Source: Somniosus microcephalus (Eukaryota). Taken from it: a stretch of 64,000 nt of DNA. The position numbers and the translations under genes were made by a program. The stretch covers positions 257,238,001 through 257,302,000 of the forward strand of contig CM126204.1 in the NCBI GenBank assembly GCA_052327205.1. The letters run 5' to 3'. Position 1 is the stretch's first letter; each line of letters starts with the position of its first letter. The notes beneath the pieces are model-generated. The model was not told where the DNA came from, did not search any database, and saw only the letters and a program-made list of their open reading frames with translations. Below are positions 1-56,728 of this stretch, piece by piece.

Positions 1-17
1 TTGACTAAATTTTCGAC

Positions 18-6271: not shown

Positions 6272-9200
6272 GTCAGTAATAATATTGTGTAGCACTGATT
6301 TTTCTCCCCCAACTTTCTCACCTCCTGTCTAGAAGCTGCCTAAAGTGACTGACCATCTGATAATTTAAATTTCCTTCCCTCTTGGGATCGTGCCCTGACC
6401 AGCAATATATTGACTTGGAAATCGCATTGGTCCTACCATTCATTGCTAGAGGAATTGAATGAACGTATGATTACCCAGCAAGTTAGAATCAATACATACA
6501 GCGGGAACAGTACCATAGTGGTAATATTACTGGGCTAGTAATGCAGGAACCTGGACTAATGATCCAGAGAAGTGAGTTCAAATCCCACCTCGGCAGCTGG
6601 GGAATTTAAACTCAGTTAATTAAATAAATCTGGAATGAAAAGCTAGTATCAGTAATGGTGACCATTAAACTATCGGATTGTGGTTAAAAACCCATCTGGT
6701 TCACTAACGTCCTTTAGGGAAGGAAATCTGCCATCCTTACCTGGTCTGGCCTGTATGTAACTCCAGACCCACAGCAATGTGGTTCACTCTTGACTGCCCT
6801 CTGAAATGGCCTAGCAAGTCACTGTGTTGTAACAAACCGCTATGAGAAGCAATAATAAGGATTAAAAAAGCGGACAGACCACCCGGCATCAACCTCTGCG
6901 CCAGCTACGGACACGGCAACGGCACACCCAGCCCAGTCGACCCTGCAAAGTCCTCCTCACCAACATCTAGGGACTTGTGCCAAAATTGGGAGAGCTGTCC
7001 CACAGACTAGTCAAGCAACAGCCTGACATAGTCATACTCACAAAATCATACCTTTCAGCCAATGTCCCAAACTCCTCCATCACCGTCCCTGGGTATGTCC
7101 TGTCCCACCGGCAGGACAAACCCACTAGGGGTGGCGGCACAGTGGTATACAGTCAGGTTGAGTGTCCTCAACATTGATTCCGGACCCCATGAAGTCTCAT
7201 GGCTTCGGGTCAAGCATGGGCAAGCAAACCTGCTAATTACCATCTACTGCCCTCCCTCAGCTGATGAATCAGTACTCCTCCATGTTGAACACCACTTGGA
7301 AGAAGCAATGAGAGTAGAATGTACTCTGGGTGGGGGACTTCAAGAGTGGCTCGGTAGCACCACGACTGACCGAGCTGGCCTGGAGGACATAGCTGCCAGT
7401 CTGGGCCTGCGACAGGTGGTGAGAGAACCAACGCGAGGGAAAAATCGACCTCGTCCTCACCAATCTACCTGTCACAGATGCATCTGTCCATGACAGTCCC
7501 GTCTTCACACTGCGGACACCCTCCATTGTGTTGTATGGCACCCCCACCGTGCTAAATGGGATTCAGAACAGATCTAGCAGCTCAAAACTGGGCATCCATG
7601 AGGCTCAGCAGAACTGTATTCCACCACAATCTGTAACCTCATGGCCTGGGGTTATCCGTCACTCTACCATTATCATCAAGCCAAGAGACCAACCCTGGCT
7701 CAATAAGGAGTGTAGAAGAGCATGCCAGGAGCAGCACCAGGCATACCTAAAAATGAAATAACTACAGAAAATGCTGGAAATACTCAGCAGGCCAGGCAGC
7801 ATCCGTGGAGAGAGAAACAGAGTTAACGTTTCAGGTCTGGGACCCTTCATCAGAACTGGAAAAAGCTGGAGATGTAACATATTAAGCAGGTGCAGAGACA
7901 GAGACAGCTATGCCTGCCTGTTCATGGGACATGTGGAACATTCTTTGTTCCAGTCCTACTCAGGTCCCCTCCCTCCCCTCTTTTTCCGGTACATCAATGA
8001 CTGTATTGGTGCCGTTTCCTGCTCTCGCCCTGAACTGGATAAGTTCATCACTGTCATTACCCAGAGCTAAGAAGTAAGGCACTTCTACATATCCAAAAAA
8101 GCAGTAAAATATGGAGAGATGGGCAGTCAATATTAAATTCACAAAACAATTTAATTGTAACAGTAAGAGCTTGTTTCTGCTATTGGAATAGACCTTTCTA
8201 ATAAATTCCTGACTATATACAGCAGTGGTGCCACTAATAAGTAACCATGCGAGAAACTTTAACCTTTTTTTTAATAAAACTTGTTGAATCTGGTACTTTG
8301 CCTTTAATATTCTTTTAGACCTTGCATCTCTAACTGACTAAAAGAGCAGGTGGGCAAGCAACTGTAGACTATGTCCAACCTCCGCTAACACTGTTGTGTG
8401 GCTCGTCAGTAGGCATTGCTAAAGTAAGACCCAAGGTCTGCACTGATGCATTTTCTTTCTGTCCTTTTCATTGTTGTGCTTGAACCAGTCAAGATCGCAC
8501 CAATTCATCCTCTAGGAGATGTCAAGGCTGCGTACTTTTAAACTTAGGTGTCATTTATACAGTACTAGCTGGGGGAGCCCGGCTTTGCCAGGGCTGTTTT
8601 GGGCCGGGCGGTTTAAATCGAGTGCGAGGCTTTGGGGCCTCTCTGTGTCCCTCTGTGAATCTGCTGCCAGGCAACATTTTAAATCGAGTCCCAGGCTTTT
8701 GGGCCCTGTCTGTGTCCCTTTGTGAATCTGCTGCCGGGCAACATTTCTACCTTTTAATACCTTGAAAGATGAAAGTGAAAGTACTTATAAAACGTTTTTG
8801 GTAAATCTTATGTTATTTTTAAAAGAGATACTAACTTTTTCAAAGCTGGATGATCAAAGTAGTTTGAGCTGGAAGCAGTGAAACAATGGCTGCCACATCC
8901 CTGAGATGAAAACGATTAGTCCCGCCCACACACACACACCGATTGGCCAACCATCAGGGGACCGTACTGTAGGATTGGTCAATCGTGACGGCACAGGATT
9001 GGTCGAACCTTGACGTCAGTCAATCAATGCTAAGTAGCAGATAATGAGTTTAATTTTGAAGGTTTTTTGCATAAGGCGCGAACAATTTTCATCCGACCGA
9101 AAAGTAAATACGCTTGCGACCGTCCCGGAACCGTAAGCTTTCTTTGGAGGTAACGCGCGTAGGTAGGCTCTATAACTTTCGAGCGCATAGCCGGACAGAC

Positions 9201-12200: not shown

Positions 12201-15200
12201 GATTCCTAGCTATTTGACCAGCATCCTGACAACTGCAAGTAATCCTAAGCCCTCAATGTGAAAGCCCCATTCGCGGAATGACACACGCCAGAACTGCAGC
12301 AGTTGCCATCAGAATTTTTATGCAAAACAAACAACTGATGGCATTTTTACAAAATACACAACATTTCACCCAAGTGACTATTTGTGCTTTATTTTCCTCT
12401 TATGCCTGCTCCTACGTAGTGGTTCCCCTGTGGCTTCAGCAGATGTGGAGGCCCCTTGCTCACTTTCCTGCTGCTCCTGTCTCGACACCTTTGGCAGGCG
12501 TCCTCTGGGGTGGCGAGCCTGCAAGGGCTCGTCAGCAGTCTGCTGCTCCTGCGGCTGTGCAGGAGTTGAGACGTCTATCTCAGTTGGGTGTGGACTCTGG
12601 CAGGGCTCTGACCGAGGGCTCTGCAGTGGCATGGAAGTGTGTGCGCTTGGAGAAGAGCCCCCACTTCCTTGAGGTCTGCCACCAACCTCCCTCTCATGGG
12701 TCAGGTCCCCCTCAGTGCCTGCAAGTGACTTGAGAGCACCTTGCTGCACATCAGGGGGGCCATGGGGACCCGTATCTGCAATGGCAGTCCTACTCGGAAG
12801 GACTTCCATGAAGGTCTGGTTTCTCTGTTCAATAGATGCCCATCGCTCCTCAGGAGATGTCATTCTATTCTGAACACTCATCATGTTTTCCATACCCTGG
12901 CAACTAACCTCCTCCATGGTCGTAGCCCTCCTCTCCTCTACCGTAGCCATCCTCTCCTCTACGGTAGCCAGCCTTACCACGGAGGCAGCAATCATTTCCA
13001 CGTAGGTAGCCACCCTTTCTGTGTTGATGTGTTAATGCGCCACTGACTCCACAAAGGCTCTGCTCATGTTCGCTATGGACTCCTCCATTCGCTCCACACT
13101 CGCAGCGACCCTGGAGACAAAACCTGCCAGAGACTCCTGCATCTGTGCATGGAGTTCCATCACCTCTGATCTTACAGATGGACCCAGAGGCAGAGGGTCG
13201 ACATGCAGCTGAGCCGAGCTGGCAGAGTCCTGCACCCTCCGGCGAGGACTCTCCACTGCTGTTCCTGTCTCCACAATCTGCTGATGCTCACTTGTGAGCT
13301 GTGATACACCAGGTGACAACTCTACTCTATGTCCCGAAGGTCCCACCGAGGTGTGAGTGTCTGCGCTGGTGCTGGGTGCGCTTATTTCTGCTGACGCTGC
13401 ACCCTCAGAGGTTGCAGATTCCTCTGAGGAGTCTGGCATCTCAGGCTCTTCCTCCTGCACACTGGGGACGGGGGCTCTCGATGGTCCTGTGGGGGAGTCA
13501 AGGAAAAAATTAGAGATGTGATGCCAAGGTTACATGCACATTGCATTTTGCAGATGATCATAAGTCCATATGATGTAGCTTCAGAATCATTATCAGCGAC
13601 TCATGCAATGCCAATGAGAGAGATGGAAAACTATTCTGTCACCAGCTTGCGGGGATGCACCTGTCTGTCCTTCCCCAACTTCCGCATCTCTGTCAGCCCC
13701 GACAATCTCCAGGACGCCTTCCTCCCAGAGGGTGAGCTGGGCTAATGAGGGCGGCAGTCCTCCTGTCCTGGCTCGCTCTCTCCTGTTGTGAGCTCTCTTT
13801 TCCTGCAATGGGGGAGACAAGTGGAGGTTGAGTGAGAATGAAGGAGTGAGTGCAGAGATTGTATAGCATAGATACTTAGAGGGAGACAAAGATGGAGTGA
13901 GGTTGCAAGACCAAGGGCCCTCCCTGTGTGTTGTCAGTTGTGTTCAAAGCATCAGAGTGAGAGGGAGTGTGAGGGCTGCATGGTGGCATAGTTATGTGAA
14001 TGTGAGCATAGAGAGAGAGGGAATGGGTAAGGGTGCATGGATGCGAGTGTCAAGTGGGATGTGGAGGAAGAGATTGCTAAAGCTGAGTGCTGGTGAGGAA
14101 AGGCAATGGGGATCAGATTGAGGGTGATGGAAACTTCATACAGTACTTACTTTTCCAGTGCGATGAAGGTCATGGAATCTTTTCCTGCACTGCATCCAGG
14201 TGCACCGTGTGAGCCCCAAGGAGTTGACTTCCCCTGCCACCTGTAGCCACACAGCCTTGGTCTGACTGGGAGGCCTCTTCCTCCCTGAAGAAGGGAACAG
14301 GACCTTTCTGTGGGCCCTAGCACCATCCAGCAATGCCTGGAGTGAAGCCTCATCAAATTTTGGGGCAGCTCTTGCCCTCCCGCTGGCCGTTGCTCCTGCA
14401 GGCTCCTGTGCCATCTCAATGGTGAAGTTTGGAAGCCTGCAGAAGAAGCAAGGCTTGCTGTGGACCTTAAAAGCAGCAGCAATGGTGACGTCATATTCTG
14501 CGACTTTCTGACTGGAAATACTCAATTGCCAAGGCTTCCCACACGTTGGAAATCAATTGGCCAATTGAGTTAAAATTGCATCAATCTTACAGACCCATTT
14601 AGATTCGTGTGTGAAACACCAAATTTGGGGAACCCGACAATTTCCCGCACCTGAGTTAAAATTGACCCCTTGGAGTATATTCAAGGCTGAGTTCGATAGA
14701 TTTTTGGACTCTAGGGGAATCAAGGGATATGGGAATCGGGCGGGATAGTGGAGTTGAGGTCGAAGATCAGCCATGCTCTATTGAATGGCGGAGCAGGCTC
14801 GAGGGGCCGTATGGGCTACTCCTGCTCCTAATTCTTATGTTCTATGCACATGTTTCAAACGGGTAACCAAAATACCATATTTAAATTTTCTATTTAGTTT
14901 GCTAAGTTGGCCACCTTAGTGATGCAGTAGGTGCGGATGCAATGAACGAAATCAAAATCTAGCTTAATATGTCAACATAATGCTGACAAATTAGAACCGT
15001 TTTGGGCTTTATTGATTTTCCTTGATTGTTGGGAAAATTTTGACCGTAAGCAAACAAAGCGACTAGAATTTAATGTGAGTATGTAATTGTTTCATTTCAG
15101 AATACACTAATGCATATTGCATAGTGAATCCAAAAACATTGTCCCACAGCAGGGGTGGAGAATGGTATTTTCAGCCAATTTGTTCTGTCTTTTCCAGATC

Positions 15201-35167: not shown

Positions 35168-35966
35168 CTGTATAGGAAAATAAAAACTATTAGTAATTTG
35201 GATTGCTGATTAATGCTGTGCATTTTAAAAAAGTTACATCTTTGTTTTCTCCTCTAATCTGAATTGCATCACGTACTTTGTCTAAAGGGACAAAAGGCTT
35301 GTGTGAATGCTGTTGATAACAAGTAACTAAAGCATATGTGAAAAAAGCTCTCCAACTTTCCCTGTAAGGAAGTGTTTGTCCTTATTCTCTCTCTCTGGAT
35401 GTGTCCCTCTCCTTCCCTGGCTACATCACTGCTGAAGTTGGAGTTAGTTCTGCAGAGACTGGCTTCTGGACATTTGCATATTGGGTTTTTTCTCTGCTCC
35501 TTTATTTTCATTTTCCATAAAATGGTATATAGACAAGGTAAACTGAATATTACCTTAAATTAAGCCAGGAAAGTGGGACCAGAGGATGTCAATTTAAATT
35601 AGTGTGAAAAATAGATTAGAACTGATCTTAAAAGGAACTTCTATACTCTGTGATAAATGTTTAGAATAACTTTCCTGGTAGTATAGATAAGAACATTAGG
35701 GATGGTCAAAATAAACCTTGATGTTATAATGGGAGAGTTAAGGTATATGGAGGGGTGAGCTCTGAATCACCCAATGATGACCTTATCTTAAGTTCTGAAA
35801 GTAATGATTCTTCTAGTGAATGAATACTTGAAGTGAACTAAACATGCTGGATAAGTGCACCATAAAGACCAAAAAGGACTCAAGCTTGATCCTTGGTCTA
35901 TGCTGTTCGCTGAACCACTGCACTGAGCCATTACATTGTCAGCATCTCTGTACGAGAGTCTAACCA

Positions 35967-36662
35967 CTGCCCTTGACATTCAATGGCATTACCATCGCTG
36001 AATCTCCCACCATCAACATCCTGGGGGTCACCATAGACCAGAAACTTAACTGGACCAGCCACATAAAGACTGTGGCAACAAGAGCAGGTCAGAGGCTAGG
36101 TATTCTGCAGCGAGTGTCTCACCTCCTGACTCCCCAAAGCCTTTCTACCATCTACAAGGTACAAGTAAGGAGTGTGATGGAATACTCTCCACTTGCCTGG
36201 ATGAGTGCAGCTCCAACAACACTCAAGAAGCTCGACACCATACAAGACAAAGTAGCCTGCTTGATTGGCACCCCATCCACCACCTTAAATATTCACTCCC
36301 TCCACCACCGACGTACTGTGGCTGCAGTGCGTACCATCTACAAGCTGCACTGCAACAACTCGCCAAGGCTTCTTCGGCACATCTAAACCCGCGACCTCTT
36401 CCACCTAGAAGGACAAAGGCAGCAGGCGCATGGGAACACCACCACCTCCAAGTCACACACCATCCTGACTTAGAAGTATATCGCCGATCCTTCATTGTCG
36501 CTGGGTCAAAATCCTGGAATTCCCTACCTAACAGCACTGTGGGAGTACCTTCACCACATGGACTGCAGTGGTTCAAGAAGGCGGCGGTGAGCAATTAGGG
36601 ATGGGCAATAAATACTGGCCTTACCAGTGACGCCCACATCCCATAAACGAATTTTAAAAAAA
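35967..36662 (+). mobile_element. 3' fragment of the tRNA-headed LINE family
   Basis: ORF 35973-36386 is nearly identical to the C-terminus of 47965-49854; same tail GCAATTAGGGATGGGC...GACGCCCACATCCC. Confidence 0.9.
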
Positions 36663-37993: not shown

Positions 37994-40900
37994 TTATCTT
38001 CTGCTTCTTCTTTTTCTTTTCTGCCTTTTTGAAACTCTCGGAGCTCCTTTCTCGGCTGCCAGCTGTAGCACCACCAACTCTCTATGTTCCTTAGACCTTA
38101 AGTGCTTCCTCCGGATTTCAGCACTTTGGGAGTTTTCATCACAAGCTGGGCAGACCACATCCTCGTAATATTCAGTGTCACTCAACAGGTCATGGTAATA
38201 TTCGGGTTCGTCCTGAGTTAGGCCAGCGAGAGAGCCTTCTTCTTCCTCCTCACCCGTCTGGACGTTAGCTGACGGTGGTTCCTTCCCTAGACATCTTTCT
38301 TGAAAAGACTTCTTCATGCATTCATATTCATCCCGCTCTTCCTGGGTTGTCTGCCATTCCTTCACTACTGACCTCATTTGTGAGTTCAATACCTTCCCTT
38401 CCACCGGGGATTGCGGTATCAGGCTATTTAATCCTTCTACTGAAGCAGCTGTTTCAACATTCTTCTGTTCACATTGACGTGATTCAACGAACTCTTCATA
38501 GAGTAAACTGTAACACAAAATCTGTGTTGCCACCTCAGTTATTTCTGTAACTTTTGGGAGCTCCGAATTCCTTCCCTTTGCAGATTGAAGCTCGTGTTCC
38601 CATTGTGGAGTCTTGTCTCTCAGCATGTGAAGGAGTTGGCTGACCGTTAACTCTTCCGCGGGGACTCTGTGGATCAGAGTCTTCACCATTTCATCCACCT
38701 TTCCCTCCAATGCTTTCACCTTCCTTTCCTCTTGTACTTTGGTTTCAAGCGCTCGAAGAAGTTGCGCCTTGATGCTCCCAAGCTCATGTTCAGAGCCCAT
38801 TCTTACAGTCTCTGTGTTTCTTACAGTTTCCTTCCCTTCCACTGAAAGGATTCCCAGTTGACTCTGCTCTTCAAGTCGTTGAACCTCGGTCATTGCCGCC
38901 TCATATTTATCTTGGGTTTCCTCCAATATTTTTATGAGTTCTTGGACATCTTGTCTTTCATGTTCTGCCATGTCTTTCACCGCTAAATTCTCATCTATGG
39001 ATGGAACTTTTACCGATGAGTCTGTCTTGGCCTTGAGCTCATCAAGAATTTCCTGCAGCCTTTGGACTTCTTGCTCATGTTCAACCTTTAGTTGTTCATA
39101 TGCTTCTACTGAAACTAGCTTTTCGGAGGCTGCCGAGTTAATCCCCTCCAGAATTGTAGCCTGGGCCTGTTCATACTGTTCTTTCCACTTCTCACACTCT
39201 GCTTGTAAGGAGTCATAGAGAAGAACTGGAATAAAATCCCGGCTTCCTGAAGATTCCTCTTCATTTGCTTCTTTCGCAATTTCCTGTTGGAGTTCAGCCA
39301 AGGCTGCTATGCTATCTGCCTCTTGAAGTCTCACTGCCATCAAATCTTCTTTATTCTTGCAGTCTATCTCAGTCATTTTCCCTTTATTTTCATTCAACTG
39401 AGTGATAAGCTCCTCTTGCAACATGGCCACATTATTCACATCAGGTAAAGAAGCGTTTCTCTTTTCCATGTCCAAGATTTTTTTCTGCATCTCTTTAAGT
39501 GCACACTGCGATTCAGCTTCTCTTAACCTTGCCTGCACTAGCTCCGTCTCCAATTGCAGAACAAAATCCTCAGTGTAGCGTGGTTTGCCTTTATGCTGTA
39601 TCTCTAGATCATGCAAATATTCTAACTCCTGAACATCATAAGGGAGGTGTGATCGGTAATTGGTCACGATGGCTCTATGGTCGCTCTCTGCTTGAGCCAG
39701 CAGGTTCTGTTGTCTTTCCAGACTCTCCCATTCGGTGTCATAGAACTTTTTCATTGTTTTCATCTCTTGTACGAGACGGTAACTTAATTGTTCGAATTGT
39801 TGTCGTACTTTGAAATAACGTTGAGTTCGAGCTCGGTGTTCCTCCGTAATGCATATGTCTGTGACTTGAACAGACTCAGAATTCTCTGTCTTTATGCACG
39901 CCATCGTTTTTCCAACCTTAGTCAGTGAGTTCATGTTAACCTTGTTTTTCATACGTGGGCTGGACTTATCGTCTTCCGGCTCAGAGTCTGAGCTGCTTGT
40001 CTGCACCGAGTCCTCACTCGTCATTGCTTGTAGGTAGTGCCATTCCATGTCTATTTTCTTGATCCACTCCCGTCCTAGAAGTGGTGGTCCTCCCTCATGT
40101 AGTACATACAAGTTCATTCTTGGGTGTTCTTTACCCCATCTCTCACCTTGACGGTATACTTTATGCCCCGTGTATGTCTGTAATACGAACTTGGTATCTC
40201 TTAAGGGTATGTGTGAGAAAAGCCGGTGGTAATCCCCTCGATTTATGACTGATACAGCTGATCCAGTGTCCAACTCCATTTTCACTTGGACTCCAGCTAT
40301 TTTTAGCATGACCCAGATAGTTTGTAGGTCAGCTTCCTTACTCACATGGTGGATACTCAGACTACCCAGCTCCTGGCCGTTTGGATCTGAGTCTGGATTC
40401 TGTTCGTCTGAACTCTTCTCAGCCCCCTCGTATACCTTGTTGTACTTTTCTTGTGATGGCTTCCTTTGGTTGTTGGTCTTCTTCCCTGACCGGCATACCT
40501 TAGCGATGTGACCCAGTTTGCCACATTTCCTACATTCTTGGTTCTTAAACCAGCATTGATTCTGGTCGTGTGTTGTCTTCCCACAACGATAGCATTTTGT
40601 TGTACTCGAGGTAATTTGGTCCACCCCGAGCGCCGCCGCCTTTAGTTGCATTTCCGCCGTTCCTTTCGCGGCGGCTTCGTGTGATGCGGCTATAAGGACA
40701 GCCCTGTCAAGTGTAAGGTCGTTCTCTTCTAGTAGGCGCTTTTGCGTCCCTTCCTTGGACAATCCGCCTACGAACTTGTCTCGCAGTGCCTCTGTCAGAT
40801 TCCCTCCGAACTGGCAGTATTTCGCTAGCCTACGCAGTTCGACCAAGTATTCTGCGTTGTTTTCGTCTTTCCGTTGCGTTCTTGCATAGAATTTGAATCG

Positions 40901-41164
40901 TTCAGCCAACATCAACGGTGTGGGGTTCAAGTGGTCCTTCAGAACAACCACAATCTCTTCGAAAGACTGATCCGCCGGTTTAGCTGGTGCTAGTAAATCC
41001 TTCAAGAGCCCATATGTCTTTGCGCCCATCGAGTTTAACAATGTTATCGCCTTGTCGTCTTCCTCTATTTTGTTGGCTTCACAATAGATCTCGATGCATT
41101 CCACGTACGTGGCCCAGTCTTCTATCTCAGAATTAAAATCATTAATATTCCCTCGCTTAGGCAT
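37994..41164 (-). CDS. Gag-protease fused to host-derived coiled-coil and zinc-finger segments (1056 aa, intact)
   Basis: aa1-170 Gag, two CCHC knuckles (aa191-224), protease LDTGSAVS...LLGREW (aa283-375); no RT/RH/IN motifs; C-terminal ~680 aa are acidic coiled coil, a CPAC..H..H finger and a basic tail. Confidence 0.9.
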   Translation of the reverse strand: MPKRGNINDFNSEIEDWATYVECIEIYCEANKIEEDDKAITLLNSMGAKTYGLLKDLLAPAKPADQSFEEIVVVLKDHLNPTPLMLAERFKFYARTQRKDENNAEYLVELRRLAKYCQFGGNLTEALRDKFVGGLSKEGTQKRLLEENDLTLDRAVLIAASHEAAAKGTAEMQLKAAALGVDQITSSTTKCYRCGKTTHDQNQCWFKNQECRKCGKLGHIAKVCRSGKKTNNQRKPSQEKYNKVYEGAEKSSDEQNPDSDPNGQELGSLSIHHVSKEADLQTIWVMLKIAGVQVKMELDTGSAVSVINRGDYHRLFSHIPLRDTKFVLQTYTGHKVYRQGERWGKEHPRMNLYVLHEGGPPLLGREWIKKIDMEWHYLQAMTSEDSVQTSSSDSEPEDDKSSPRMKNKVNMNSLTKVGKTMACIKTENSESVQVTDICITEEHRARTQRYFKVRQQFEQLSYRLVQEMKTMKKFYDTEWESLERQQNLLAQAESDHRAIVTNYRSHLPYDVQELEYLHDLEIQHKGKPRYTEDFVLQLETELVQARLREAESQCALKEMQKKILDMEKRNASLPDVNNVAMLQEELITQLNENKGKMTEIDCKNKEDLMAVRLQEADSIAALAELQQEIAKEANEEESSGSRDFIPVLLYDSLQAECEKWKEQYEQAQATILEGINSAASEKLVSVEAYEQLKVEHEQEVQRLQEILDELKAKTDSSVKVPSIDENLAVKDMAEHERQDVQELIKILEETQDKYEAAMTEVQRLEEQSQLGILSVEGKETVRNTETVRMGSEHELGSIKAQLLRALETKVQEERKVKALEGKVDEMVKTLIHRVPAEELTVSQLLHMLRDKTPQWEHELQSAKGRNSELPKVTEITEVATQILCYSLLYEEFVESRQCEQKNVETAASVEGLNSLIPQSPVEGKVLNSQMRSVVKEWQTTQEERDEYECMKKSFQERCLGKEPPSANVQTGEEEEEGSLAGLTQDEPEYYHDLLSDTEYYEDVVCPACDENSQSAEIRRKHLRSKEHRELVVLQLAAEKGAPRVSKRQKRKRRSRR

Positions 41165-42233
41165 CTTTCTTCCCTTGGGAGCAGCACCAGTATTTCTTTA
41201 AGTATTCTTATTTATTTGTTTATTTCTAAGATGGCGGTTTTCCCGCGAATATGGCGGTTTCCCGCTCTTCCTTTCTCTCCCCGCCCACTTCAATGGCGGT
41301 ATGTCAATCAAGATGGCGGTTTTCCCGCGAAAATGGCGGTTTCCCGCTCTTCCTTTCTCGCCCCGCCCACTTCAATGGCGGTTTCCCGCTTCTGGCGTCT
41401 TCTCCGCCTAATGGCGGCTTCCCGCGTTTCTTCCCGGTGGAAGGGGTACGCTTCCCCCCACAGCGGACAGGTTCAGCCGCTGGCTGGCTACCGCACAGCT
41501 CCCCTTACTCGGCTATGTCTTTTCCTCCCGCCCGCACGGTTCTACCGGCGCTGGGTACACCCCGTTAACAGAGGACAGTTCAGCCGCTGGACTGGCTCTC
41601 GCGCAGTCTCTCTCTCCGTACCCGGCTCTGTCGCTCTCTCACCCGCACGTTCGGTGTTACCGGCCCTGGGTACCCCGTTGGTGGAGAACAGCTCAGCCGC
41701 TGGACTGGCTCCTCGCAGTCTCTCTCTCCGCACCCGGCTCTCACCCGCACGGTTCCCGTTCGCCTCCCCAGCCCTCTCGCAGACCGGTGTTTCCCTCCCC
41801 GGCTGCAGCTGGGTTTCTCTTCCCGCGCCTACTCGCAGGCTCAGCGCTTCGTGGCTGCGGTCGCTGCCCAGATTTTTCCCGCCGATCGCGGTCCAGCTGT
41901 CACCCGACGCCGTTGGACCCGACTTTTGGCCGGCACAGCTCCCCCTCGACCGAGGTCGAGTGCTCTGCCCTTATCCTCCGGATACTTCTACACCTTCCCC
42001 TACTCACAGTCTCTTCGGCCGCCTTGTTTCTTGCTGGTCGGCTCACTCCGCACCGTGGCAGAAGGGTAGTCAGTGCCTGTTGCTGATACAGCTTTTGTTG
42101 TTAGTCTTCCTGCTTTCTGTTGTTGCAGCCTCGTGTTTTCTTTTGGTAGCACGACGAGGGCGGTTGTCTCTCTTCGACGCTCTTCGTTGCTTTTGGTAAT
42201 CTTGCCGCAGGGTATGATCGGACTCGTCGCCAC

Positions 42234-43617: not shown

Positions 43618-44620
43618 CTGAAAGAAATGAATTCAAGAGTTTTGTTTTCAATTTCTTAAAAAGAAAACAATATTTCTCCTCTACTCGTCCCTTATTTGAT
43701 TGCTAACCATTGCTGTAGTTGAATGTTATTATTTCCCAGAAGACTGGTCTTTCCTATTAATTTCAATAAGGGTTATTGCTTGGTTAATCAGCACATAGGC
43801 CCGTATTTTCCGATCGGAGGCTTCCTGCGTGTGGAGGCCTCCAATCTGGAAAAAAATCTACGGACTTACCTGAGGTCTCCCGAGGTCTGGACACTTCCGC
43901 TCCTGAGCCTCTCCAACTCGAAATGCGCAGGGCCCACGTATCCCAGAGGTACATGTGGTTCACAAGCATCCCTGGGATCACGTGGGCCATGGAGAGCCAA
44001 TAGGCGAAGGGAATCTCCCTTCATACACTTGACAGATAGACCTGTCAAATGTATGAATGGCGATCACCCCAAAGACACTGTAAAACATTAAATAATTTTT
44101 TTTAAACATCACGGCCTAGAAATTCAGTTAGTAGCGCCAGCCGCTAGCGCCTTAAGAGGGCGATAAGTGGGGCGCGAAGCAGCTAGCACCCGGGCGCGGC
44201 GCGATCTGCACCTCTCGCGAACTTGAGTGGACATTTAGCGGCGGCGCAAGACCGCAACGCCCGCTCAGCTGCGCGCACAGATCCTGACGTCATTTCATGG
44301 TGCAACGCCCTTGGTGCGCCCCGAACCGGAAGTTCAGTGGCGCCCCCCTTCTTTCCGCCTGGCGCTCCAGCGACTGGTTTAGTGGAACGGTTCCCAGTCG
44401 CTGTGGGGCTGGGGGGGCGCAATTTAAAGGCGGCTCTTCCTGCCTTCTTTGTGGTAACCATTTTGGACCACTTCTGTGTGAGAGAGAGAGATTTGCAGAG
44501 AGACAAAGGGAGAGAGCTTTCTGCTTTGACTCAGTGCTCGCACAGGTACTTCTGGCTTCAGCCCAGACCTTTGCAGTTGGATTGATTTTTCAGTGCCATA
44601 GCCTTGAGTGGCCACCTATA

Positions 44621-46066
44621 ATGGGGGCTGCAATGGGTGGAAACGTTGGGTTTCTCCATTGCATTGAGAGGGCTCAGAGATGCCGAGAGAGACTGCCAAT
44701 CATGGCCAGACGGAGGAGGGCCAACAGGCGTCGGCACAGGAGGCCTTACCCTCCCAGGGTATACCGCCAGCAGTTCTCATACCTCAACATGTCTGAGGAG
44801 CAGTGTATTCGGAGGCTTCGATTCAGAAGGGAGGTGGTCACTGAGATCTGCCACCTGCTTCAGAGAGATCTGCAGCCTCAGCTGAGGAGCAGGACGTCTC
44901 TGTCGGTGGCAGTGAAGGTGACAGTGGCTCTGAACTTCTATGCCACCGGCTCCTTCCAATCCGCTACTGGGGACATTGCCAATGTCTCCCAGTTCACGGT
45001 GCATTGCTGCATCCGCCAAGTCATGAATGCTCTCTTCAAAAGGAGATCACAGAAATCACAGAAACCTCACAGTGCAGATAGAGGCCATTTCGGCCCATCG
45101 AGCCTACACCGAAACATATCCCACCCTATCCCCGTAACCCCACGTATATAATCCCCCTAACACTAAGGGTCAATTTATCATAGCCAATCAACCTAACCTG
45201 CACATCTTTGGACTGTGGGAGGAAACCGGAGCACCCGGAGGAAACCCACGCAGACACAAGGAGAATGTGCAAACTCCACACAGACAGTCACCCGAGGCCG
45301 GATTCGAACCCGGGTCCCTGGCGCTGTGAGGCAACAGTGCTAACCACTATGCCACCGTGCTGCCAGTACATGTCAGTACATTTCCTTCCCCATGACCCTG
45401 GACAAGCAGCAGGAGCGTGCAATGGGAATTGCAAGAATAGCGGGCTTCCCCATGGTCCAGGGCGCCATTGACTGCACGCATGTGGCTTTGCGGGCGCCTC
45501 TGGAGAATGCCGAGGATTACTGCAACCGGAAGGGGTTCCATTCGTTGAACGTGCAGTTGGTGTGTGACCACAGGCAGCTGGTACTAGCTGTCAATGCCCG
45601 CTTTCCAGGCAGCAGCCACGACGCCTTCATCCTGCGCCAGGCTTCTTTGGCAGACCTTTTCGAAGCCCCGGCTCACCCAGGAGGCTGGCTTCTCGGGGAC
45701 AAGGGCTATCCTTTGTGCACCTGGCTGATGACCCTGCTCCGTGCGCCCAGCACCCCTGCTGAAGAGCGATACAATGACAACCATCAAGCGACCAGGAACA
45801 TCATTGAGCACACAATCGGCATGCTAAAGCAATGGTTCCGCTGTCTGGACCATTCTGGGGGAGCCCGTCAGTACTCGCATGAGCGAGTCTCCCATTTCAT
45901 TGTAGTGTGCTGCATGCTGCACAACCTAGCTATCCTCAGGACTCAGCCACTGCCAGCAGACATTGGAGGACCACCAGAGGAGGAGGAGGAGGAGGAGCAC
46001 CAAGACGGGAGGGAGGCACAAAGTGCAAGGGCCGTCCGTCAGCGGCTTATTGCAAGTCGGTTCTAG
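44621..46066 (+). pseudogene. Harbinger transposase interrupted by a SINE
   Basis: MGAAMG...VTVALNFYATGSFQ, then the SINE (45047-45364), then [37 protein letters not shown]. Confidence 0.9.
45047..45364 (-). mobile_element. HE1-type V-SINE (tRNA-derived)
   Basis: On -: GGCAGCACGGTGGCATAGTGGTTAGCACTG...GGGTTCGAATCC head, V-domain TGTCTGTGTGGAGTTTGCACATTCTCC, CR1/HER1-type tail GATGGGCCGAAATGGCCTC. Confidence 0.9.
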
Positions 46067-47680
46067 GCCCACTCTCAGGGAATGGCTTGTGCCATTGAAA
46101 AAACATGAATGGACCCGCTCCGCAAACCCTGAGCCGGTCAAGGCAACAAATAGTTCAAAGTGCAAACATGCACAATCTGAATAAAGACACTTCTTTAGTT
46201 AACAAACTGTGTGCCCTTCCCGCATGACAAAGTAATAGAGAGAAACCCCCAAAAAAGCAGTCAGACACATAACTGGCTCTCACAACCTGGAAACAATGAA
46301 CAAAAGAGTTAAACAAAAATGACCATGATCCTTGGCCTTCACAAAAAAAAACACAGCATTTTGCCACACCTCCTACTTTTTGGCCTGCGAGGGTGATCTG
46401 CCTTGCTTCCGAGATTGGCCCCTTCCCACCCTGCAGCTCCTCCGCAATGGGACCCCAGTGGCTGCAGCAAGGCTGGGGGAAGGCTGCTGAGGGTCAGATA
46501 GTGAGTCGGCAGATGCCCTTGGGGAACAGCCTGGACCAGCACTGGGCCTGGAGGGCCCGGCTGCTGACTGCTCCAACTCTGCTTGGGCAGCAGCAGTCTG
46601 TCCTACGGGTGGTGGCAGCTGCAGTAGAGGAGTGACAGTGTTGGCAGCAGGAATGCTGCCAACCTGACAGAGCACAGGCACTCCCTGGTCGGACGGGACA
46701 CTGGCACTCGCACGGGGCAGCACTGAACCATGCGCGGCAATCTGCTGAAGCACAGACTGCTGGCCTGCTGCGGCGCGGCGAGGGCCCCGGCGAATCCTGC
46801 CCGATCCAGCAAGGGTGGCAGCAGTTAGTGCTTGTGTGGCCCTGATCTGTGTCTGCATCAGACCAGCCAGTGACTGCATGGCACGACTAAGCACTTGGCT
46901 GGAAGCTGCCTGTGCTGCCCCGAATTCCTGTACACTCCTTGCCAGTGACTCTATGGAGTCAGGCATCCTTGCCACTGCAGCCATGAGCTCAGTGTGCCTG
47001 CACTCCGCCTGGGCACCCATTTCACCAAGGAGCCGCACCTCCTCTGCGCTCACTGTAGCAGGACTGGAGGCCACACTCTCCCTCTGGGGAGAAGGCCGCC
47101 GAGCTTCCCTACCCCCTCCGCGTTGCTGCAGCCCGCTGGGCCCCGGAGCTTCCCCCTCCTCAGACCCTTCCCCCCCTGCTCCCCTCCAGGGAAGACGTGT
47201 CCCCATTATGGCCATGGGCTGCCTCGGCTGAGGGTGGCACTGATGTTCCGGCTTCCTCTTCCTCCTCCTCGCCTTCCGATTCACTCACAGTGGCAGCTTG
47301 AGGGCCCGCCTCCTCACCTGGCGAATCAGCATCTGAAAGCAGGGAGGTACAAGAGTTGCTTTAGCGTGAGGACAGGGCGGCAGCGAGGGAGGCATGAGTG
47401 CTGCAATGCACTGCATTGGTTCAATAGTGGCAAAGGATGCTGGTGTGAGGCACAAGTGGAAAGAGAGAGGACCAAAAGGTGATCTCCTTACCATTGCTGT
47501 CCAGAACGAGGTCGGCATCTCCAGTGGCGACGGGGCCAATCAGTCGGCCTGCCATAATCCATTCCAATCGCTGCTCCAGATCGCTGAGGTCTTTAAGTTC
47601 AGGGCGGCCTCCCCCGGTCTGTTGATGCTGCCTCCTATTGTGGGCCAGCTTGCCCTGCAAGAGAAAGGACGGGCTCTGAG

Positions 47681-47889
47681 TACAGTGTGAAGCCCTGATC
47701 TTGGCTGCACTGCCTCCCATGGTGCACTAGCCCTTACAGTGTCAAGCCCTGATCTTGGCTGCACTGCCTCCCATGGTCGAATAGCCCTTACAGTGTCAAG
47801 CCCTGATCTTGGCTGCACTGCCTCCCATGGTGGAATAGCCCTTACAGTGTCAAGCCTGATCTTGGCTGCACTGCCTCCCATGGTGGAAT
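47681..47889. repeat. 54-bp minisatellite (~4 units here; one more at 51183-51230 beyond the LINE)
   Basis: CCCTGATCTTGGCTGCACTGCCTCCCATGG recurs at 47693, 47747, 47801, 47855 and 51182. Confidence 0.9.
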
Positions 47890-50800
47890 TTTATTTTTTA
47901 TTTTTTATTCATTGATGGGATGTGGGCGTCGCTGGCTGGCTAGGCCTGCATTTAGTGCCCATCCCTAATTGCCCTTGAGAAGATGGTGGTGAGCCGCCGC
48001 CTTGAACTGCTGCAGTCCATATGGTGTAGGTACACCCACAATGCTGTTAGGAAGGGAGTTCCAGGATTTTGGCCCAGCGACAGTGAAGGAACGGCGATAC
48101 AGGTCCAAGTCAGGATGGTATGTGGCTTGGAGGGGAACGTGTAGGTGGTGATGTTCCCATGCGTCTGCTGCCCTTGTCCTAAGTGGTAGAGGTCGCGGGT
48201 TTGGAAGGTGCTGTTGAAGGAGCTTTGGCGAGTTGCTGCAGTGCATCTTGTAGATGGTACACACTGCAGCCACAGTGCGCCAGTGGTGGAGGGAGTGAAT
48301 GTTGAAGGTGGTGGATGGAGTGCCAATCAAGCGGGCTGCTTTATCCTGAATGGTGTCGAGCTTCTTGAGTGTTGTTGGAGCTGCACTCATCCAGGCAAGT
48401 GGAGAGTATTCCATCACACTCCTGACTTGTGCCTTGTAGATGGTGGAAAGGCTTTGGGGAGTCAGGAGGTGAGACACTCGCCGCAGAATTCCCAGCCTCT
48501 GGCCTGCTCTTGTAGCCACAGTATTTATATGGCTGGTCCAGTTCAGTTTCTGATCAATGGTAACCCCCAGGATGTTGATAGTGGGGGATTCAGCGATGGT
48601 AATGCCATTGAATGTCAAGGGGAGATGGTTAGAGTCTCGCTTGTTGGAGATGGTCATTGCCTGGCACTTGTGTGGTGCGAATGTTACTTGCCACTTGTCA
48701 GCCCAAATCTGAATGTTGTCTAGGTCTTGTTGCATATGGACACGGACTGCGTCAGTATCTGACGAGTCTCGAATGGTGCTGAACAGTGTGCAATCATCAG
48801 CGAACATCCCCACTTCTGACCTTATGATGGAGGGAAGGTCATTGATGAAACAGCTGAAGATGGTTGGGCCTAGGACACTGCCCTGAGGAACTCCTGCAGT
48901 GATGTCATGTGATTGAGATGAATGACCTCCAACAACCACAGCCAACTTCCTTTGTGCCAGGTATGATTCCAACCAATGGAGAGTTTTCCCCTTGATTCCC
49001 ATTGACTTCAGTTTTGCTAGGGCTCCTTGATGCCACACTCGATCAAATGCTGCCTTGATGTCAAGGGCAGTCACTCTCACCTCACCTCTTGAGTTCGGCT
49101 CTTTTGTCCATGTTTGGACCAAGGCTGTAATGAGGTCAGGAGCTGAGTGGCCCTGGCGGAACCCAAACTGGGCATCAGTTAGCAGGTTATTGCTGAGTAA
49201 GTGCCGCTTAATAGCACTGTCAACGACACCTTCCATCACTTTGCTGATGATTGAGAGTAGACTGATGGGACGGTAATTGGCCGGGTCGGATTTGTCCTGC
49301 TTTTTGTAGACAGGACATACTTGGGCAATTTTCCACATTGCCGGGTAGATGCTAGTGTTGTAGCTGTACTGGAACAGCTTGGCTAGGGGCGCAGCTAGTT
49401 CTGGAGCACAAGCCTTCAGTACTATTGCCGGAATGTTGTCAGGGCCCATAGCCTTTGCAGTATCCAGTGTCTTCAGCCGTTTCTTGACATCACGTGGAGT
49501 GAATTGAATGGGCTGAAGACTGGCATCTGTGATGCTGGGGACCTCAGGAGGAGGCCGAGATGGATCATCCACTCGGCACTTCTGGCTGAAGATAGTTGCG
49601 AATGCTTCAGCCTTGTCTTTTGCACTCACGTGCTGGGCTCCACCATCATTGAGGATGGGGATATTTTTGGAGCTTCCTCCTCCTGTTAACTGTTTAATTG
49701 TCCACCACCACTCACGACTGGATGTGGCAGGACTGCAGAGCTTTGATTTGATCCGATGGTTGTGAGATCGCTTAGCTCTGTTTATCGCATGTTGCTTCCG
49801 TTGTTTGGCATACAAGTAGTCCTGTGTTGTAGCCTCACCAGGTTGACACCTCATTTTTCGGTATGCCTGGTGCTGTTCCCGGCATGCTCTCCTGCACTCT
49901 TAGTTAAACCAGGGTTGATCTCCCGGCTTGATGGTAATGGTAGAGTGAGGGATATGCCGGGCCATGAGGTTACAGATTGTGGTTGAATACAATTCTGCTG
50001 CTGCTGATGGCCCACAGCACCTCATGGATGCCCAGTTTTGAGTTTCCAGATCTGTTCGAAATCTGTCCCATTTAGCACGGTGGTAGTGTCACACAACACG
50101 GTGGAGGGTATCCTCAACATGAAGATGGGACTTCGTCTCCACAAGGACTGTGCGGTGGTCACTTCCACCAATGCTGTCATGGACAGATGCATCTGCAACA
50201 GGTAGATTGGTGAGGACGAGATCAAGTAGGTTTTTCCCTTTTGTTGGTTCCCTCACCACCTGTCGCAGCCCCAGTCTGGCAGCTATGTCCTTTAGGACTC
50301 GGCCAGCTCGGTCAGTTGTGGTGCTACCGAGCCACTCTTGGTGATGGACATTGAAGTCCCCCACCCAGAGGATATTTTGTGCCCTTGCTACTCTCAGTGC
50401 TTCTTCCAATTGGTGTTCAACATGAAGGAGTAGTGATTCATCAGCTGAGGGAGGGCGGTAGGTGGTAATTAGCAGGAGGTTTTCTTGCCCATGTTTGACT
50501 TGATGCCATGAGACCTCATGGGGTCCTGAGTCAATGTTGAGGACTCCCAGGGCTACTCCCTCCCGACTGTATACCACGGTGCCACCACCTCTGGTGGGTC
50601 TGTCCTGCCGGTGGGACAGTACATAACCAGGGATGGTGATGGTGGTGTCTGGGACATTGGTTGTAAGGTATGATTCGGTAATTATGACTATGTCAGGCTG
50701 TTGCTTGACTAGTCTGTGGGACAGCTCTCCCAATTTTGGCACAAGCCCCCAGATGTTGGTAAGGAGGACTTTGCAGGGTCGACAGGGCTGGGTTTGCCGT

Positions 50801-51182
50801 TGTCATTGTCGTTTCCGGTGCCGGGTGATCCATCCGGTTTTATTCTTATTGTTTTTCGTAGCGGTTGTTTACAACTGAGTGGCTTGCTAGGCCATTTCAG
50901 AGAGCATTAAGAGTCAACCACATTGCTGTGGGTCTGGAGTCACATGTAGGCCAGACGATTTCCTTCCCTAAAGGACATTAGTGAACCAGATGGGTTTTTG
51001 CAACAATCGACAATGGTATCATGGTCGCCATTACTAAGACTAACATTTAATTCCAGAATTAAATTGAATTGAATTTAAATTCCACCAGCTGCCGTGGTGG
51101 GATTTGAACCCATATCCTCAGAGCATTTGACTGAGCCTCTGGCTTACTAGTCCAGTGACATAACCACTACGCCACCGCCTCC
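47890..51182 (-). mobile_element. Full-length tRNA-headed single-ORF LINE (APE + RT, CR1-group; Zenon-like motifs)
   Basis: tRNA head (A box TGGCGTAGTGG 51174-51164, B box GGTTCAAATCC 51110-51100), ~380-nt leader, APE (GDFN, SDH) and RT ([12 protein letters not shown]) in one frame with two nonsense codons (50089, ~49900), A-rich tail. Confidence 0.92.
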
Positions 51183-52694
51183 CCTGATCTTGGCTGCACT
51201 GCCTCCCATGGTCGAATAGCCCTTACAGTGTGTAAAGTGGTGATTGTGCATGTGATTTTCATGAGAGGCCCATAGGTCTTGGATGAGGGCTGGGCATTGG
51301 GGCTTTCAGGACCCTTTGGCCATAAAGTGAGGTGCACATGCAGGGATGAAGAGGATACTGGAAAGGGTACTCACCCTGATAACCCGAGTGAGGTCATTGA
51401 ACTTCTTCCTGCATTGCGTTGGGGTCCTAGGTACCATGCTGCTGGAGGTCACTCTGTGTGCCACCTCCCTCCAAGCTTTTCGATATTCGTTGGGTAGCGA
51501 CCTCCTGCCACTGTCCAGAAAGAGGATAGGTCGCCTGTGCTCCACTGCGCCAACCAGGACCTTCAGGGCCCCCTCACTGAAGCGCTGCGCTCGCTCCCTG
51601 CCCCTCTCCATGGTCGTAGGCGTAACGATGTCGCAGCAGGTCTTTCCAGGCCTAGAATCAGGGCTCCAATGTGCAGGGCGTGGCTGCAAGCCAAATCGAC
51701 CCTCCCCCTTTAAGAGGTGACCGGCGCCAGCATGTCTGCCTGCAATCGCTAACTGGCCGCACCTGCGCTGCGCCCGCCCTCGGTGGTAGCGCCTTGCCTC
51801 TCCAGCTTAGCGCCTTAGGATAGTCGTGCAGCGCCTGCTTTAGTGCAGCAAGAACCTCTTGGGGCAATGCAACTCAATTTTGCTGAAGGTGGCGCTAAGT
51901 TGCGCCAGGCGCTAAATTTAGCGTACGCTCGACTGTAGCGCCCCAAACATGGCGATACTGAATTTCTAGGCCCACATTTTTAAAATGAGTTGAAATTACA
52001 ATAAATTAAATATTTTAAATATTTTTTGAATAAAATAATTAAAGTTTTTTTACGGGGCTAAAAATAAACTTACCTTTTTTTAAAAGTATTTTTAAATGCT
52101 AAATGAGTGAAAACATTTTTTAAAAACTTTTTTCAGCTCATATGCTGGTAAAAGCAGGCCTTTCGGAAAGCGGAACTCTCCACCCGCAGAGGCCCTTCTC
52201 TAGGGCAGGCTTCCGATCTGTCAAGAGCATTCTTGACAAATCGGAAATGCCGGTTTTCAGCGCATGTGCTTGGCATGCCTGAAACTGACATTTCCGATGT
52301 CCCTACGGGTGTGTACACAGCGCGAACACACCCGTAGGCATCGGAATATATGGCCCATTGTGTTATCTGCATCTGTACATTAAGCCCCTGTTCTGTGATA
52401 GGCTTTGGCACCCTGAAGAAAATTCCCAATACTTAAAACAAAACTCACAACATTCTTCAGCCAGGAAGAAAGAGAAAGGCTGCCTGCTCTATAATCACTG
52501 CCAATGCTGTTCCTCAGGAAGGTCATCTTTTCCAAGACTTCAAGAGGCCTTAAAGTAATTATCAAATGTATTGGATATCGAGCAAAAAGAGAGACTCCCA
52601 AAATTAAGGAATGTATTAGGAAGGAATTGAAGAAGCCAGCAGCAAATTCTAAATACTTCCTCCATTATAACACAAGTTTTGGCTACTTCCCATG

Positions 52695-54755: not shown

Positions 54756-56728
54756 AGTTCTGGTCTCCCCCACAAGTGGAAACTTCTTCTCTACGTCTAC
54801 CCTATCAAACACTTTCATAATCTTAAAGACCTCTATTAGGTCACCCCTCAGTATTCTCTGTTCTGGAGAAAAGAGCCCCAGCCCGTTCAGTTTTTCCTGA
54901 TTGGTATATCCTCTCAGTTCTGGTATCATTAGAATCATAGAGAATCATAGAGTTATACAGCACAGAAAGAGGCCCTTCGGCCCATCGCATCCGCGCCGGC
55001 CATCAAGCCCTGTCTAATCTAATCCCATTTTCCAGCATTTGGTCCGTAGCCTTGTATGCTATGGCATTTCAAGTGCTCATCCAAATGCTTCTTGAGTGTT
55101 GTGAGGGTTCCTACCTCTACCACCATTTCAGGCAGTGAGTTCCAGATTCCAACCACCCTCTGGGTGAAAAAGTTTTTCCTCAAATCCCCTCTAAACCTCC
55201 TGCCCCTTACCTTGAATCTATGCCCCCTTGTTATTGACCCCTCTACTAAGGGGAAAAGTTCCTTTCTATCTACCCTATCTATGCCCCTCATAATTATGTA
55301 CACCTCCTCTGCTCTGCTCCAAGGAAAACAACCCCAGCCTGTCCAGTCTTTCTTCATAGCTGAAGCGCTCCAGCCCAGGTAACATCCTGGTAAATCTCCT
55401 CTGCACCCTCTCCAAAGCAATCACATCCTTCCTACAGTGTGATGACCAGAACTGCACACAGTACTCCAGCTGTGGCCTTACCAGCGTTTTGTACAGCTCC
55501 ATCATAACCTCCCTGCTCTTATATTCTATGCCTCGGCTAATGAAGGCAAGTATCCCATATGCCTTTTTAACCACCTTATCCACCTGTTCTGCTGCCTTCA
55601 GGGATCTATGTACATGCACACCAAGGTCCCTCTGATCCTCTGTCTTTCCTAGGGTCTTACCATTCATTGTGTATTCCCTTGCCTTGTTAGTCCGTCCAAA
55701 ATGCATCACCTCACACTTTTCAGGGTTAAATTCCATTTGCCACTGTTCCGCCCATCTGACCAACCCATCTATATCGTCCTGTAGCCTGAGGCTTCCCTCC
55801 TCGCTATTTACCACCCCACCAATTTTCGTGTCATCTGCGAACTTACTGATCATACCTTTTACATTCACATCCAAATCATTAATGTAGACCACAAACAGCA
55901 AGGGACCCAGCACCGATCCCTGCGGTACCCCACTGGACACAGGCTTCCAGTCACAAAAACAACCTTCCACAATCACCCTCTGCCTTCTGCCACTAAGCCA
56001 GTTTTGGATCCAATGTGCCAAGGCACCCTGGATCCCATGGGCTCTTACCTTCCTGACCAGTCTCCTATGCGGGACTTTATCAAAAGCCTTACTGAAATCC
56101 ATGTAAACCACATCCACTGCACTACCCTCATCCACACACCTAGTCACCCCCTCGAAAAATTCAATCAAATTGGTCAGACATGATCTTCCCTTGACAAAGC
56201 CATGCTGGCTATCCCTAATTAATCCTTGCCTCTCCAAGTGGAGACTAATTCTGTCCCTCAGAATTTTTTCCAATAATTTCCCTACCACTGATGTTAGGCC
56301 CACTGGCCTGTAATTCCCTGGTTTATCCCTACTACCCTTCTTGAATAATGGTACTATGTTAGCTGTTCTCCAGTCCTCTGGCACATCCCCTGTGGCCAGA
56401 GAGGTTCTGAAAATTTGTGTCAGAGCCCCTGCAATCTCCTCCTTTGCCTCACATAGTAGCCTGGGATACATCTCGTCCGGGCCTGGGGATTTATCCACTT
56501 TTAAGCCTGCTAAAACCACAGGTACCTCCTCCCTCTTGATGCTAATATGTTCAAGTATATCACAGTCCCCCTGCCCAATTTCTATGTCCACATCGTCCTT
56601 CTCCATAGTGAACACAGATGCAAAAAATTCATTTAAAACCCCACCTACATCTTCTGGTTCTACACACAGCTTGCCACTTTGGTCCCTAATGGGCCCTACT
56701 CTTTCCCTAGTTATCCTCTTGCCCTTAA
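54756..56728 (-). mobile_element. CR1-clade LINEs (main copy 54930-56728, which resumes at 62542 after the Helitron)
   Basis: RT ORF 55275-56615 ([26 protein letters not shown]); tail ATCATAGA..GGCCCTTCGGCCCATC; junction GCCCTTAA|TATACTTATAAAA spans the Helitron. Confidence 0.9.

Follow-up and report, generated by a model that had tools for sequence, protein, structure and literature searches.

A 64,000-nucleotide (nt) stretch of the genome of Somniosus microcephalus (assembly GCA_052327205.1, contig CM126204.1, positions 257,238,001 to 257,302,000; hereafter the window) holds on its minus strand a dead copy of Zenon, a high-copy 3.3-kb long interspersed element (LINE) of elasmobranchs. The family combines (i) a tRNA-like head at its 5' end, (ii) one open reading frame (ORF) for an apurinic-type endonuclease (APE) and a reverse transcriptase (RT), under selection and without an ORF1, (iii) a depletion of T-runs, (iv) a frame free of methionine before residue 286, and (v) short interspersed elements (SINEs) made of the same two ends. 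A tRNA-type promoter, few T-runs and no normal start codon make it likely that RNA polymerase III (Pol III) reads the element, which would be translated without a cap. Judged from the DNA, the reading to which we give slightly better than even odds (about 0.55) is that Pol III transcribes tRNA-headed Zenon from end to end, and that the same uncapped RNA is translated from a non-AUG start. That Pol III makes the template RNA from the head is the firmer part of this reading, and is probable.

LINEs are assumed to be transcripts of RNA polymerase II (Pol II), and the products of Pol III are assumed to be non-coding. Neither assumption would hold if a vertebrate LINE as successful as this one had its protein translated from a Pol III transcript. 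Such a LINE would also be a natural case of codon choice shaped by the terminator of a polymerase, would point to a cellular start signal independent of both cap and AUG, and would offer a testable route for the origin of SINEs, by one deletion in a tRNA-headed LINE.

The Zenon family

The initial annotation could not say whether the element had been described. The family has been: consensuses of elasmobranch Zenon elements, which lack ORF1 and end in a poly-A tail, were published by Stuart et al. 2026 (PMC13343379; this and other published work is compared here through passages of the papers), and the name ‘CR1-Zenon like’ is used in bioRxiv 10.1101/443036. The family in the window shares with them the lack of ORF1, the single APE-RT ORF, the poly-A tail and sequence identity. 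Within the first 400 nt, to which the comparison with the published consensuses was confined, exact motif matches occur in 6-7 Zenon rows and the sequences look alike by eye. The significance of the head is not discussed in the main text of PMC13343379, which contains none of the terms ‘tRNA’, ‘Pol III’ and ‘polymerase’ (the supplement, too, is free of ‘tRNA’), and its passages do not discuss the head, the T-run deficit, the missing AUG or the SINE derivatives. Literature searches returned no title or abstract opening describing a Pol III-transcribed coding LINE, most subscription journals, Repbase and Dfam lying outside their coverage. The family is thus known; its anatomy is well supported, and undescribed in the passages and titles surveyed.

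Two subfamilies were resolved. The head and APE were used together to search the genome, and 40 of 7,399 candidate places were scored; 26 of the 39 copies other than that in the window are full length without large insertions. Subfamily A, to which the window copy belongs, has copies 98-99% identical to a majority sequence built from 27 full-length copies. The older subfamily B, for which 39 copies were retrieved, 20 of them near full length, has its own version of the head and copies 94-96% identical to the B majority; the second copy in the window matches other B copies at 87-92% identity and the A majority at 79%. Of 398,500 bases sampled as 40 evenly spaced 10-kb stretches of the genome, 16,699 (4.2%) belong to the element, which is present in 14 stretches, once as a full-length copy. 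No convincing target-site duplications were found at 28 copies.

According to the initial annotation the head runs directly into one APE-RT ORF. The single frame stands as a property of the family, with 972 codons in copy L038 of subfamily A and 973 in the B majority, but a leader of about 240 nt separates it from the head, and in the window copy three premature stops interrupt it. The two proteins share 92% amino-acid identity, and between the subfamilies dN is 0.039, dS 0.218 and dN/dS 0.18 (948 codons): the ORF is under purifying selection. Protein matches of 78-89% identity are found in Heptranchias, Heterodontus and Cetorhinus, and more distant ones in Amphiura and Branchiostoma (45-47%); the closest non-shark homologues (P0002-P0011) show 39-43%. 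A metagenome scan gave 80 still more distant relatives, of which two have a B-box-like match; none of the 53 scanned yielded a tRNA call, and no similarity to the head was seen. A viral collection yielded no relatives.

An old relative with 70% identity to subfamily A (L279:1748-3480) was also seen, its 5' end not being found; a search with it for a more divergent subfamily returned only matches of 70-74%, and a search with L276 returned B-type copies. A 100-bp tandem repeat at L094:420-1182 is derived from part of the Zenon ORF. Contigs of six public runs, presumed to be RNA, cover the element and are uninformative on start, strand and level.

A tRNA-like head at the 5' end

The A box, anticodon-like arm and B box named in the initial annotation are present, with the boxes at tRNA-like spacing and the 5' end of the element directly before the A box. 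The family starts 2-3 nt beyond the start first annotated, at about 51185 (GG in 25/38 and 27/38 copies, A in 20/38). With this spacing and with no run of four or more T (T4+) in the majority sequences, the element has these sequence features of a type 2 Pol III transcription unit. Rfam gives a tRNA-clan match of 20.6 bits (E 0.18), under the cut-off of 47, and ARAGORN calls no tRNA in the head, as expected for one of SINE type. The suggested origin from tRNA-Thr(AGT) holds only for the anticodon-like loop, which does read AGT; the isotype was not assigned, given an additional stem-loop in the head and a genome tRNA search that found only Lys and Cys genes (4/30 loci scanned).

The head belongs to the LINE family and sits at the 5' end of full-length copies, as first claimed. 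All 39 other copies from the search with head and APE start within 10 nt of the start of the window copy, a set selected for the head. A search with the APE coding sequence, made to avoid this selection, gave 30 loci, of which eight, window copy included, reach nt 1-12 and 22 are truncated within the leader; by eye they share no alternative upstream sequence, and none has an ORF1. The head is also present in subfamily B and, followed by the leader, opens all seven published elasmobranch consensuses, from five species, with no T4 in their first 400 nt. Two hagfish consensuses and one from coelacanth (the latter a row in low-confidence lower case) do not show the head and have T4+ runs in this part. 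Because of this the head was probably gained in the elasmobranch lineage, and template switching probably supplied it.

The arms of the additional stem-loop differ in sequence among A, B and three published consensuses, yet the pairing is kept (by eye in the published ones); the stem-loop is mostly absent from the ray consensus. Since the pairing has survived sequence change, the head is probably under constraint as RNA as well, a constraint compatible with both polymerases. The retained pairing also lends something to a rather unlikely alternative, in which the RNA is made by Pol II from an internal promoter in the leader or by read-through from a host gene, and the head is a captured piece of SINE or tRNA retained for its RNA structure. 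According to Kojima 2018 (PMC5786205), autonomous LINEs are transcribed by Pol II, which speaks for this alternative too. However, all lineages seen have retained both boxes, with variable sequence in between, and the 5' end falls directly before the A box, where Pol III starts.

Terminator-like T-runs are depleted

The sense strand of the window copy has no T4+ run in 3,294 nt and 21 A4+ runs. The second copy, with the same head and APE, also has none, and the neighbouring CR1 (55020-56720) has 11 on its sense (minus) strand, in line with the initial annotation. Taken alone, zero T4 is a borderline signal: P is 0.0055 by base shuffle and 0.0495 by dinucleotide shuffle of the window copy, 0.086 (RT part) and 0.85 (APE part) by synonymous shuffle, and the second copy on its own is not significant (P 0.13, 0.56). 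Of the sequence-level findings that the initial annotation named as refuting its reading (T4 runs at the expected frequency in the consensus, full-length copies mostly headless or continued upstream into an ORF1), none was seen. Inside the element the majority sequences of A and B both have zero T4. One or two T4 are carried by 10/26 full-length A copies, in three of them in the tail, and by 10/20 B copies; those in dead copies were gained by mutation.

Runs of three or more T are scarce in both ORFs, at 7 vs 16.9 expected in A (ratio 0.41) and 5 vs 15.6 in B (0.32). The same ratio has a minimum of 0.75 and a median of 1.03 in 63 related LINE ORFs (those of 80 loci with an N-free open frame of at least 400 codons), and ranges from 0.74 to 1.3 in seven ORFs of the same genome. 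For Pol III, T4 is an efficient terminator, isolated T3 is inactive and T3 with a nearby T is partly active (Orioli 2011, PMC3141230). A terminator-like class was set as T4+ together with any T3 that has a further T no more than 2 nt away. Under a null that keeps the protein, A has one such run vs 6.9 expected (P 0.004) and B none vs 5.9 (P 0.0005); isolated T3 are less affected (A 6 vs 9.9, P 0.09; B 5 vs 9.4, P 0.05). The related ORFs have a lowest ratio of 0.70 and a median of 1.03 for this class, the seven controls 0.5-1.2, so that A and B are the most extreme of the 72 ORFs tested. All 63 related ORFs contain at least two T4. Terminator-like T-runs are thus depleted beyond codon-aware nulls and every control tested, whereas the T4 count, from which the initial annotation had argued, is borderline on its own. 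Phenylalanine is rare as well: 1.85-2.06% in the A and B ORFs, against a minimum of 2.11% and a median of 3.9% in 94 long homologues.

Chance together with a T-poor, Phe-poor protein, the head being a passenger fixed once in an ancestor, is a very improbable account of these data. T makes up 20-21% of the sense strand, only about two T4 runs are expected given the protein, and the subfamilies share ancestry; against this stand the P values just given with the protein fixed, the rank among the 72 ORFs and the retention of the head across sharks and a ray. Were Pol II the polymerase, the depletion could come from avoidance of U-rich splicing or 3'-processing signals, or from composition. A mild depletion of A-runs speaks for this, but terminator-like T-runs are not depleted in the CR1, L2, LTR-type and transposase ORFs that serve as controls from this genome.

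The leader, and a frame with no AUG before residue 286

The conserved leader contains about ten upstream ATGs, a poor arrangement for cap-dependent scanning and so a point against Pol II. The first methionine of the intact L038 frame is residue 286, behind the endonuclease (residues 42-245), and B is alike; by hand count the L038 protein lacks methionine throughout residues 1-285 and has 13 among the 687 after that. Selection may act against in-frame AUGs upstream of the point where the endonuclease ends. Homologues have a methionine start and a similar basic N-terminal extension. The stretch L038:930-1784 (P0001 residues 1-285) has one phenylalanine in its first 273 residues.

In both subfamilies a GCT follows an in-frame TAA at a distance of three codons. 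From GCT to the conserved core the distance is 18 nt in 34/34 A copies and 21 or 18 nt in 21/23 B copies; in four of the seven published consensuses it is, by eye, 21, 21, 21 and 18 nt. The next codon is ACG, ACA or AAA, and this variation means that no near-cognate start is conserved. A predicted bulged hairpin ends 12 nt upstream of GCT (11 in one consensus), with a loop, CTAGCAA, that is present in 33/36 A copies and 17/32 B copies scored. A frame conserved from an invariant GCT just behind a hairpin suggests initiation driven by structure, and a structure-directed, non-AUG start is, from these predicted folds, somewhat favoured. The AGC of the loop is complementary to the in-frame GCT, both being invariant, so that there is no covariation, and an alternative nested helix also ends at GCT; that an anticodon mimic in the loop sets the start is a doubtful elaboration of the model.

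The hairpin also contains a two-codon upstream ORF, ATG GCC TAG, in frame with the main ORF, which makes re-initiation or read-through real rivals. The roles could then be split: Pol III would make the template RNA, and capped read-through transcripts, made by Pol II from the same copy or from others, would supply the protein, by re-initiation or UAG read-through. AUG-independent re-initiation is known from mammalian L1 ORF2, and in three published consensuses and one SINE family TAT or TAC stands in place of the later TAA, so that only a single stop would have to be read through. A and B retain this second in-frame stop, however, and RhiTyp_Zenon-1 is, by eye, 1 nt short between the upstream ORF and GCT and in frame afterwards. 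Purifying selection on the ORF is also simplest if the translated RNA is the copied RNA, and a division of roles appears improbable.

A Deu domain was considered for the leader; the leader bears no resemblance by eye to five Deu-domain sequences (PMC7245038 supplement) and no motif match was found, so this candidate was rejected.

SINEs derived from the LINE, and tails

Genome searches with two short copies revealed multi-copy families of SINEs, 430-500 nt long, that carry the Zenon head and show, between them, at least two junctions shared among copies. One joins nt ~343 to nt ~3167 of the LINE (11/20 loci resume at 3162-3175), the other nt ~320 to nt ~3210 (20/20 loci resume at 3209-3223); other junctions into the tail are seen in contigs of public runs. 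The first of these families retains the first ORF codons, which points to deletion from the LINE, and in sequence these families are internal deletions of Zenon. tRNA-headed SINEs are Pol III transcripts, so the spread of derivatives driven by the same head is indirect evidence that the head works as a Pol III promoter, and it counts against Pol II. The end of the leader (50895-50908) and the start of the 3' tail (47958-47975 region) are complementary and lie near several SINE junctions; the duplex beats 199/200 shuffles for A and only 94% for B. Such complementarity could favour template jumps.

In the tails, TT+ followed by A5+ occurs in 15/29 A tails vs 131/463 other A-runs (P 0.011, against an unmatched background). 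Modules of T-run and A-run in the tails of Can SINEs are regarded as relic terminators of Pol III-made copies (PMC9599045). By this analogy the Zenon modules give weak support to a Pol III origin; slippage could make them too. Subfamily B has an AATAAA about 45 nt before the tail, which favours Pol II.

Proposed expression of the element

In the reading preferred here, TFIIIC and Pol III would use the A and B boxes of the head, and Pol III would read through 3.3 kb because the terminators were purged, stopping at the first T-run that it meets within the A tail or downstream of it; the RNA would also be adenylated. Initiation would be cap-independent, at or beside the invariant GCT, and set by the structured leader. 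The encoded protein would then perform target-primed reverse transcription on its own RNA. An unlikely extreme form of this proposal would place the LINE wholly outside Pol II and the cap: a Pol III head, codons and phenylalanine purged, an anticodon mimic like that of an intergenic-region internal ribosome entry site (IGR IRES) loading ribosomes at GCU without initiator tRNA, and deletions that are ready-made SINEs.

Several observations weigh against Pol III transcription and non-AUG translation. A Pol III transcript of 3.3 kb, and the translation of one, would be unusual. By itself, the absence of T4 fails to reach significance against codon-aware nulls (about two expected; P 0.11, 0.17), the terminator-like class was chosen with the T3 result already in view, and A and B, at the amino-acid identity given above, are not independent. 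The A-runs are mildly depleted under the same null (23 vs 31.3, P 0.017; 23 vs 30.3, P 0.039), the TTT/TTC ratio alone does not differ from that of the remaining NNY codons (P 0.19-0.48), AT-rich sequences make up most of the 63 relatives (GC of at least 45% in only four), and one short control CR1 ORF stands at 3 vs 6.0 expected (P 0.05). Subfamily A has a T3-AA-T2 element at nt 119, of a type able to terminate weakly, and L038, the sole copy with a complete frame, carries a T4 near the end of its ORF. Three SquAca consensuses break the frame rule between GCT and core (by eye), the predicted fold of the entire leader is no better than the folds of shuffled sequences (z -0.83), and in Rfam no IRES family matches it, even at E values as high as 10. 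B and SINE tails lack the tail signal (4/10, P 0.48), and the background A-runs it was compared with are unmatched.

Other features of the window

The coordinates of the element, its parts and its further copies in the window are collected in Table 1. In the ORF of the window copy the premature stops lie at 50803-05, 50089-91 and 49900-02, and the 12-nt deletion is near the start of the ORF.

Table 1. Zenon copies in the window and the parts of the full-length copy
Feature	Position	Strand	Basis or remark
Full-length inactivated tRNA-headed Zenon LINE copy, young subfamily A	47889..51185	-	98.9% identity to 27-copy majority
tRNA-like head	51089..51185	-	Weak Rfam tRNA-clan match (E 0.18); sequence
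A box (TGGCGTAGTGG)	51164..51174	-	Sequence against box consensus
Anticodon-like stem-loop, loop CTAGTAA	51139..51155	-	Rfam match and sequence
Extra stem-loop, variable-arm position	51117..51135	-	Predicted folds, A/B alignment, published heads by eye
B box (GGTTCAAATCC)	51100..51110	-	Sequence
Conserved leader body, 15-nt deletion in window copy	50872..51088	-	Common to published elasmobranch Zenon consensuses
Bulged hairpin, 7-nt loop CTAGCAA	50875..50900	-	Predicted fold
In-frame TAA, then ACA ACC GCT (putative non-AUG start region)	50860..50871	-	
Single APE-RT ORF; 3 premature stops and 12-nt in-frame deletion in window copy	47965..50868	-	
Apurinic-type endonuclease domain (PF03372, PF14529)	50146..50757	-	
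Reverse transcriptase domain (PF00078)	48556..49296	-	E 1.6e-39
3' untranslated region and A-rich tail, common to SINE derivatives	47889..47964	-	
54-bp tandem repeat, insertion site of copy, resuming ~51183	47681..47889	.	Sequence
Second copy, older subfamily B: head and APE, many deletions, 3' part absent	6503..7757	+	
Third copy, 5'-truncated 3' fragment with one T4 run	35953..36662	+	

The second copy begins about 220 nt behind an exon on the same strand with a TROVE domain, Ro60-like (5605-6279, plus strand; PF05731, E 1.3e-21), and is presumably intronic. Harbinger-type transposase ORFs (PF13359) are found at 10704-13529 and 44288-47284, and an ORF of the Myb/SANT type (PF13873) at 51306-51806 on the minus strand; with a transposase on one side and the Myb ORF on the other, the full-length Zenon copy may have inserted into a Harbinger element. 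An LTR-type retroelement at 9-3810 (plus strand) has RT, RNase H and integrase domains in several frames. On the minus strand, 37994-41197 is an open frame of 1,067 codons with a gag/protease-like start, followed by a long Glu-rich, coiled-coil-like region, and no Pfam match; it is possibly a retroelement with a captured host coding sequence. Elsewhere in the genome, a tandem array of tRNA genes with a period of ~1.6 kb lies at G000:C24:42.9-43.2 Mb (L380, L382-L408); the three scanned are tRNA-Cys(GCA).

Comparison with known systems

The closest relatives are the published CarCar, HypSab, RhiTyp, ScyCan and SquAca _Zenon consensuses (PMC13343379), of the same family: ~3.3 kb, with APE, RT and a poly-A tail and without ORF1. 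SquAca_Zenon-1 is nearly identical to subfamily B by eye over the first 400 nt, whereas the head variant of subfamily A is not among the seven elasmobranch rows.

For the start of translation, the nearest parallel is the type 6 IRES of the dicistrovirus IGR (PMC10516663), where a non-AUG start, commonly GCU, GCA or CAA, lies right behind a hairpin with a 7-nt anticodon-like loop, as is proposed for Zenon. The predicted hairpin and putative start of Zenon resemble PKI of these IRESs. Unlike these, the Zenon leader has no Rfam match, PKII and PKIII were not identified in it, and it offers only 3-4 possible loop-codon pairs and no covariation.

Among SINEs, SacSINE1 and the DeuSINEs (PMC5499810, PMC4824008) resemble the derivatives described here in the shark tRNA-type head, conserved body and LINE-like tail. 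The SacSINE1 tail has been assigned to L2-2_CM, the passages of Luchetti 2017 on SacSINE1 make no mention of a tRNA-headed LINE, and the Deu and Meta domain sequences (PMC7245038 supplement) are by eye unlike the Zenon leader. tRNA-derived SINEs (SINE2), including T+ SINEs such as Can (PMC9599045), have like Zenon a head with A and B boxes, no internal terminator and a LINE-type tail, and Can-type T+ SINEs share with it T2-5 An modules in the A tail. SINE2 elements are short and non-coding, a description that excludes the 3.3-kb Zenon LINE with its own conserved APE-RT ORF and includes its derivatives of 430-500 nt, which look like ordinary SINEs.

The bipartite non-autonomous RTE and Vingi LINEs (Kojima 2018, PMC5786205) resemble these derivatives: each is a short element in which the two ends of a LINE, 5' and 3', are joined. 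They are thought to be Pol II transcripts that need a tRNA head to become SINEs. The parent Zenon LINE, unlike RTE and Vingi, is already tRNA-headed, so that one deletion yields a SINE.

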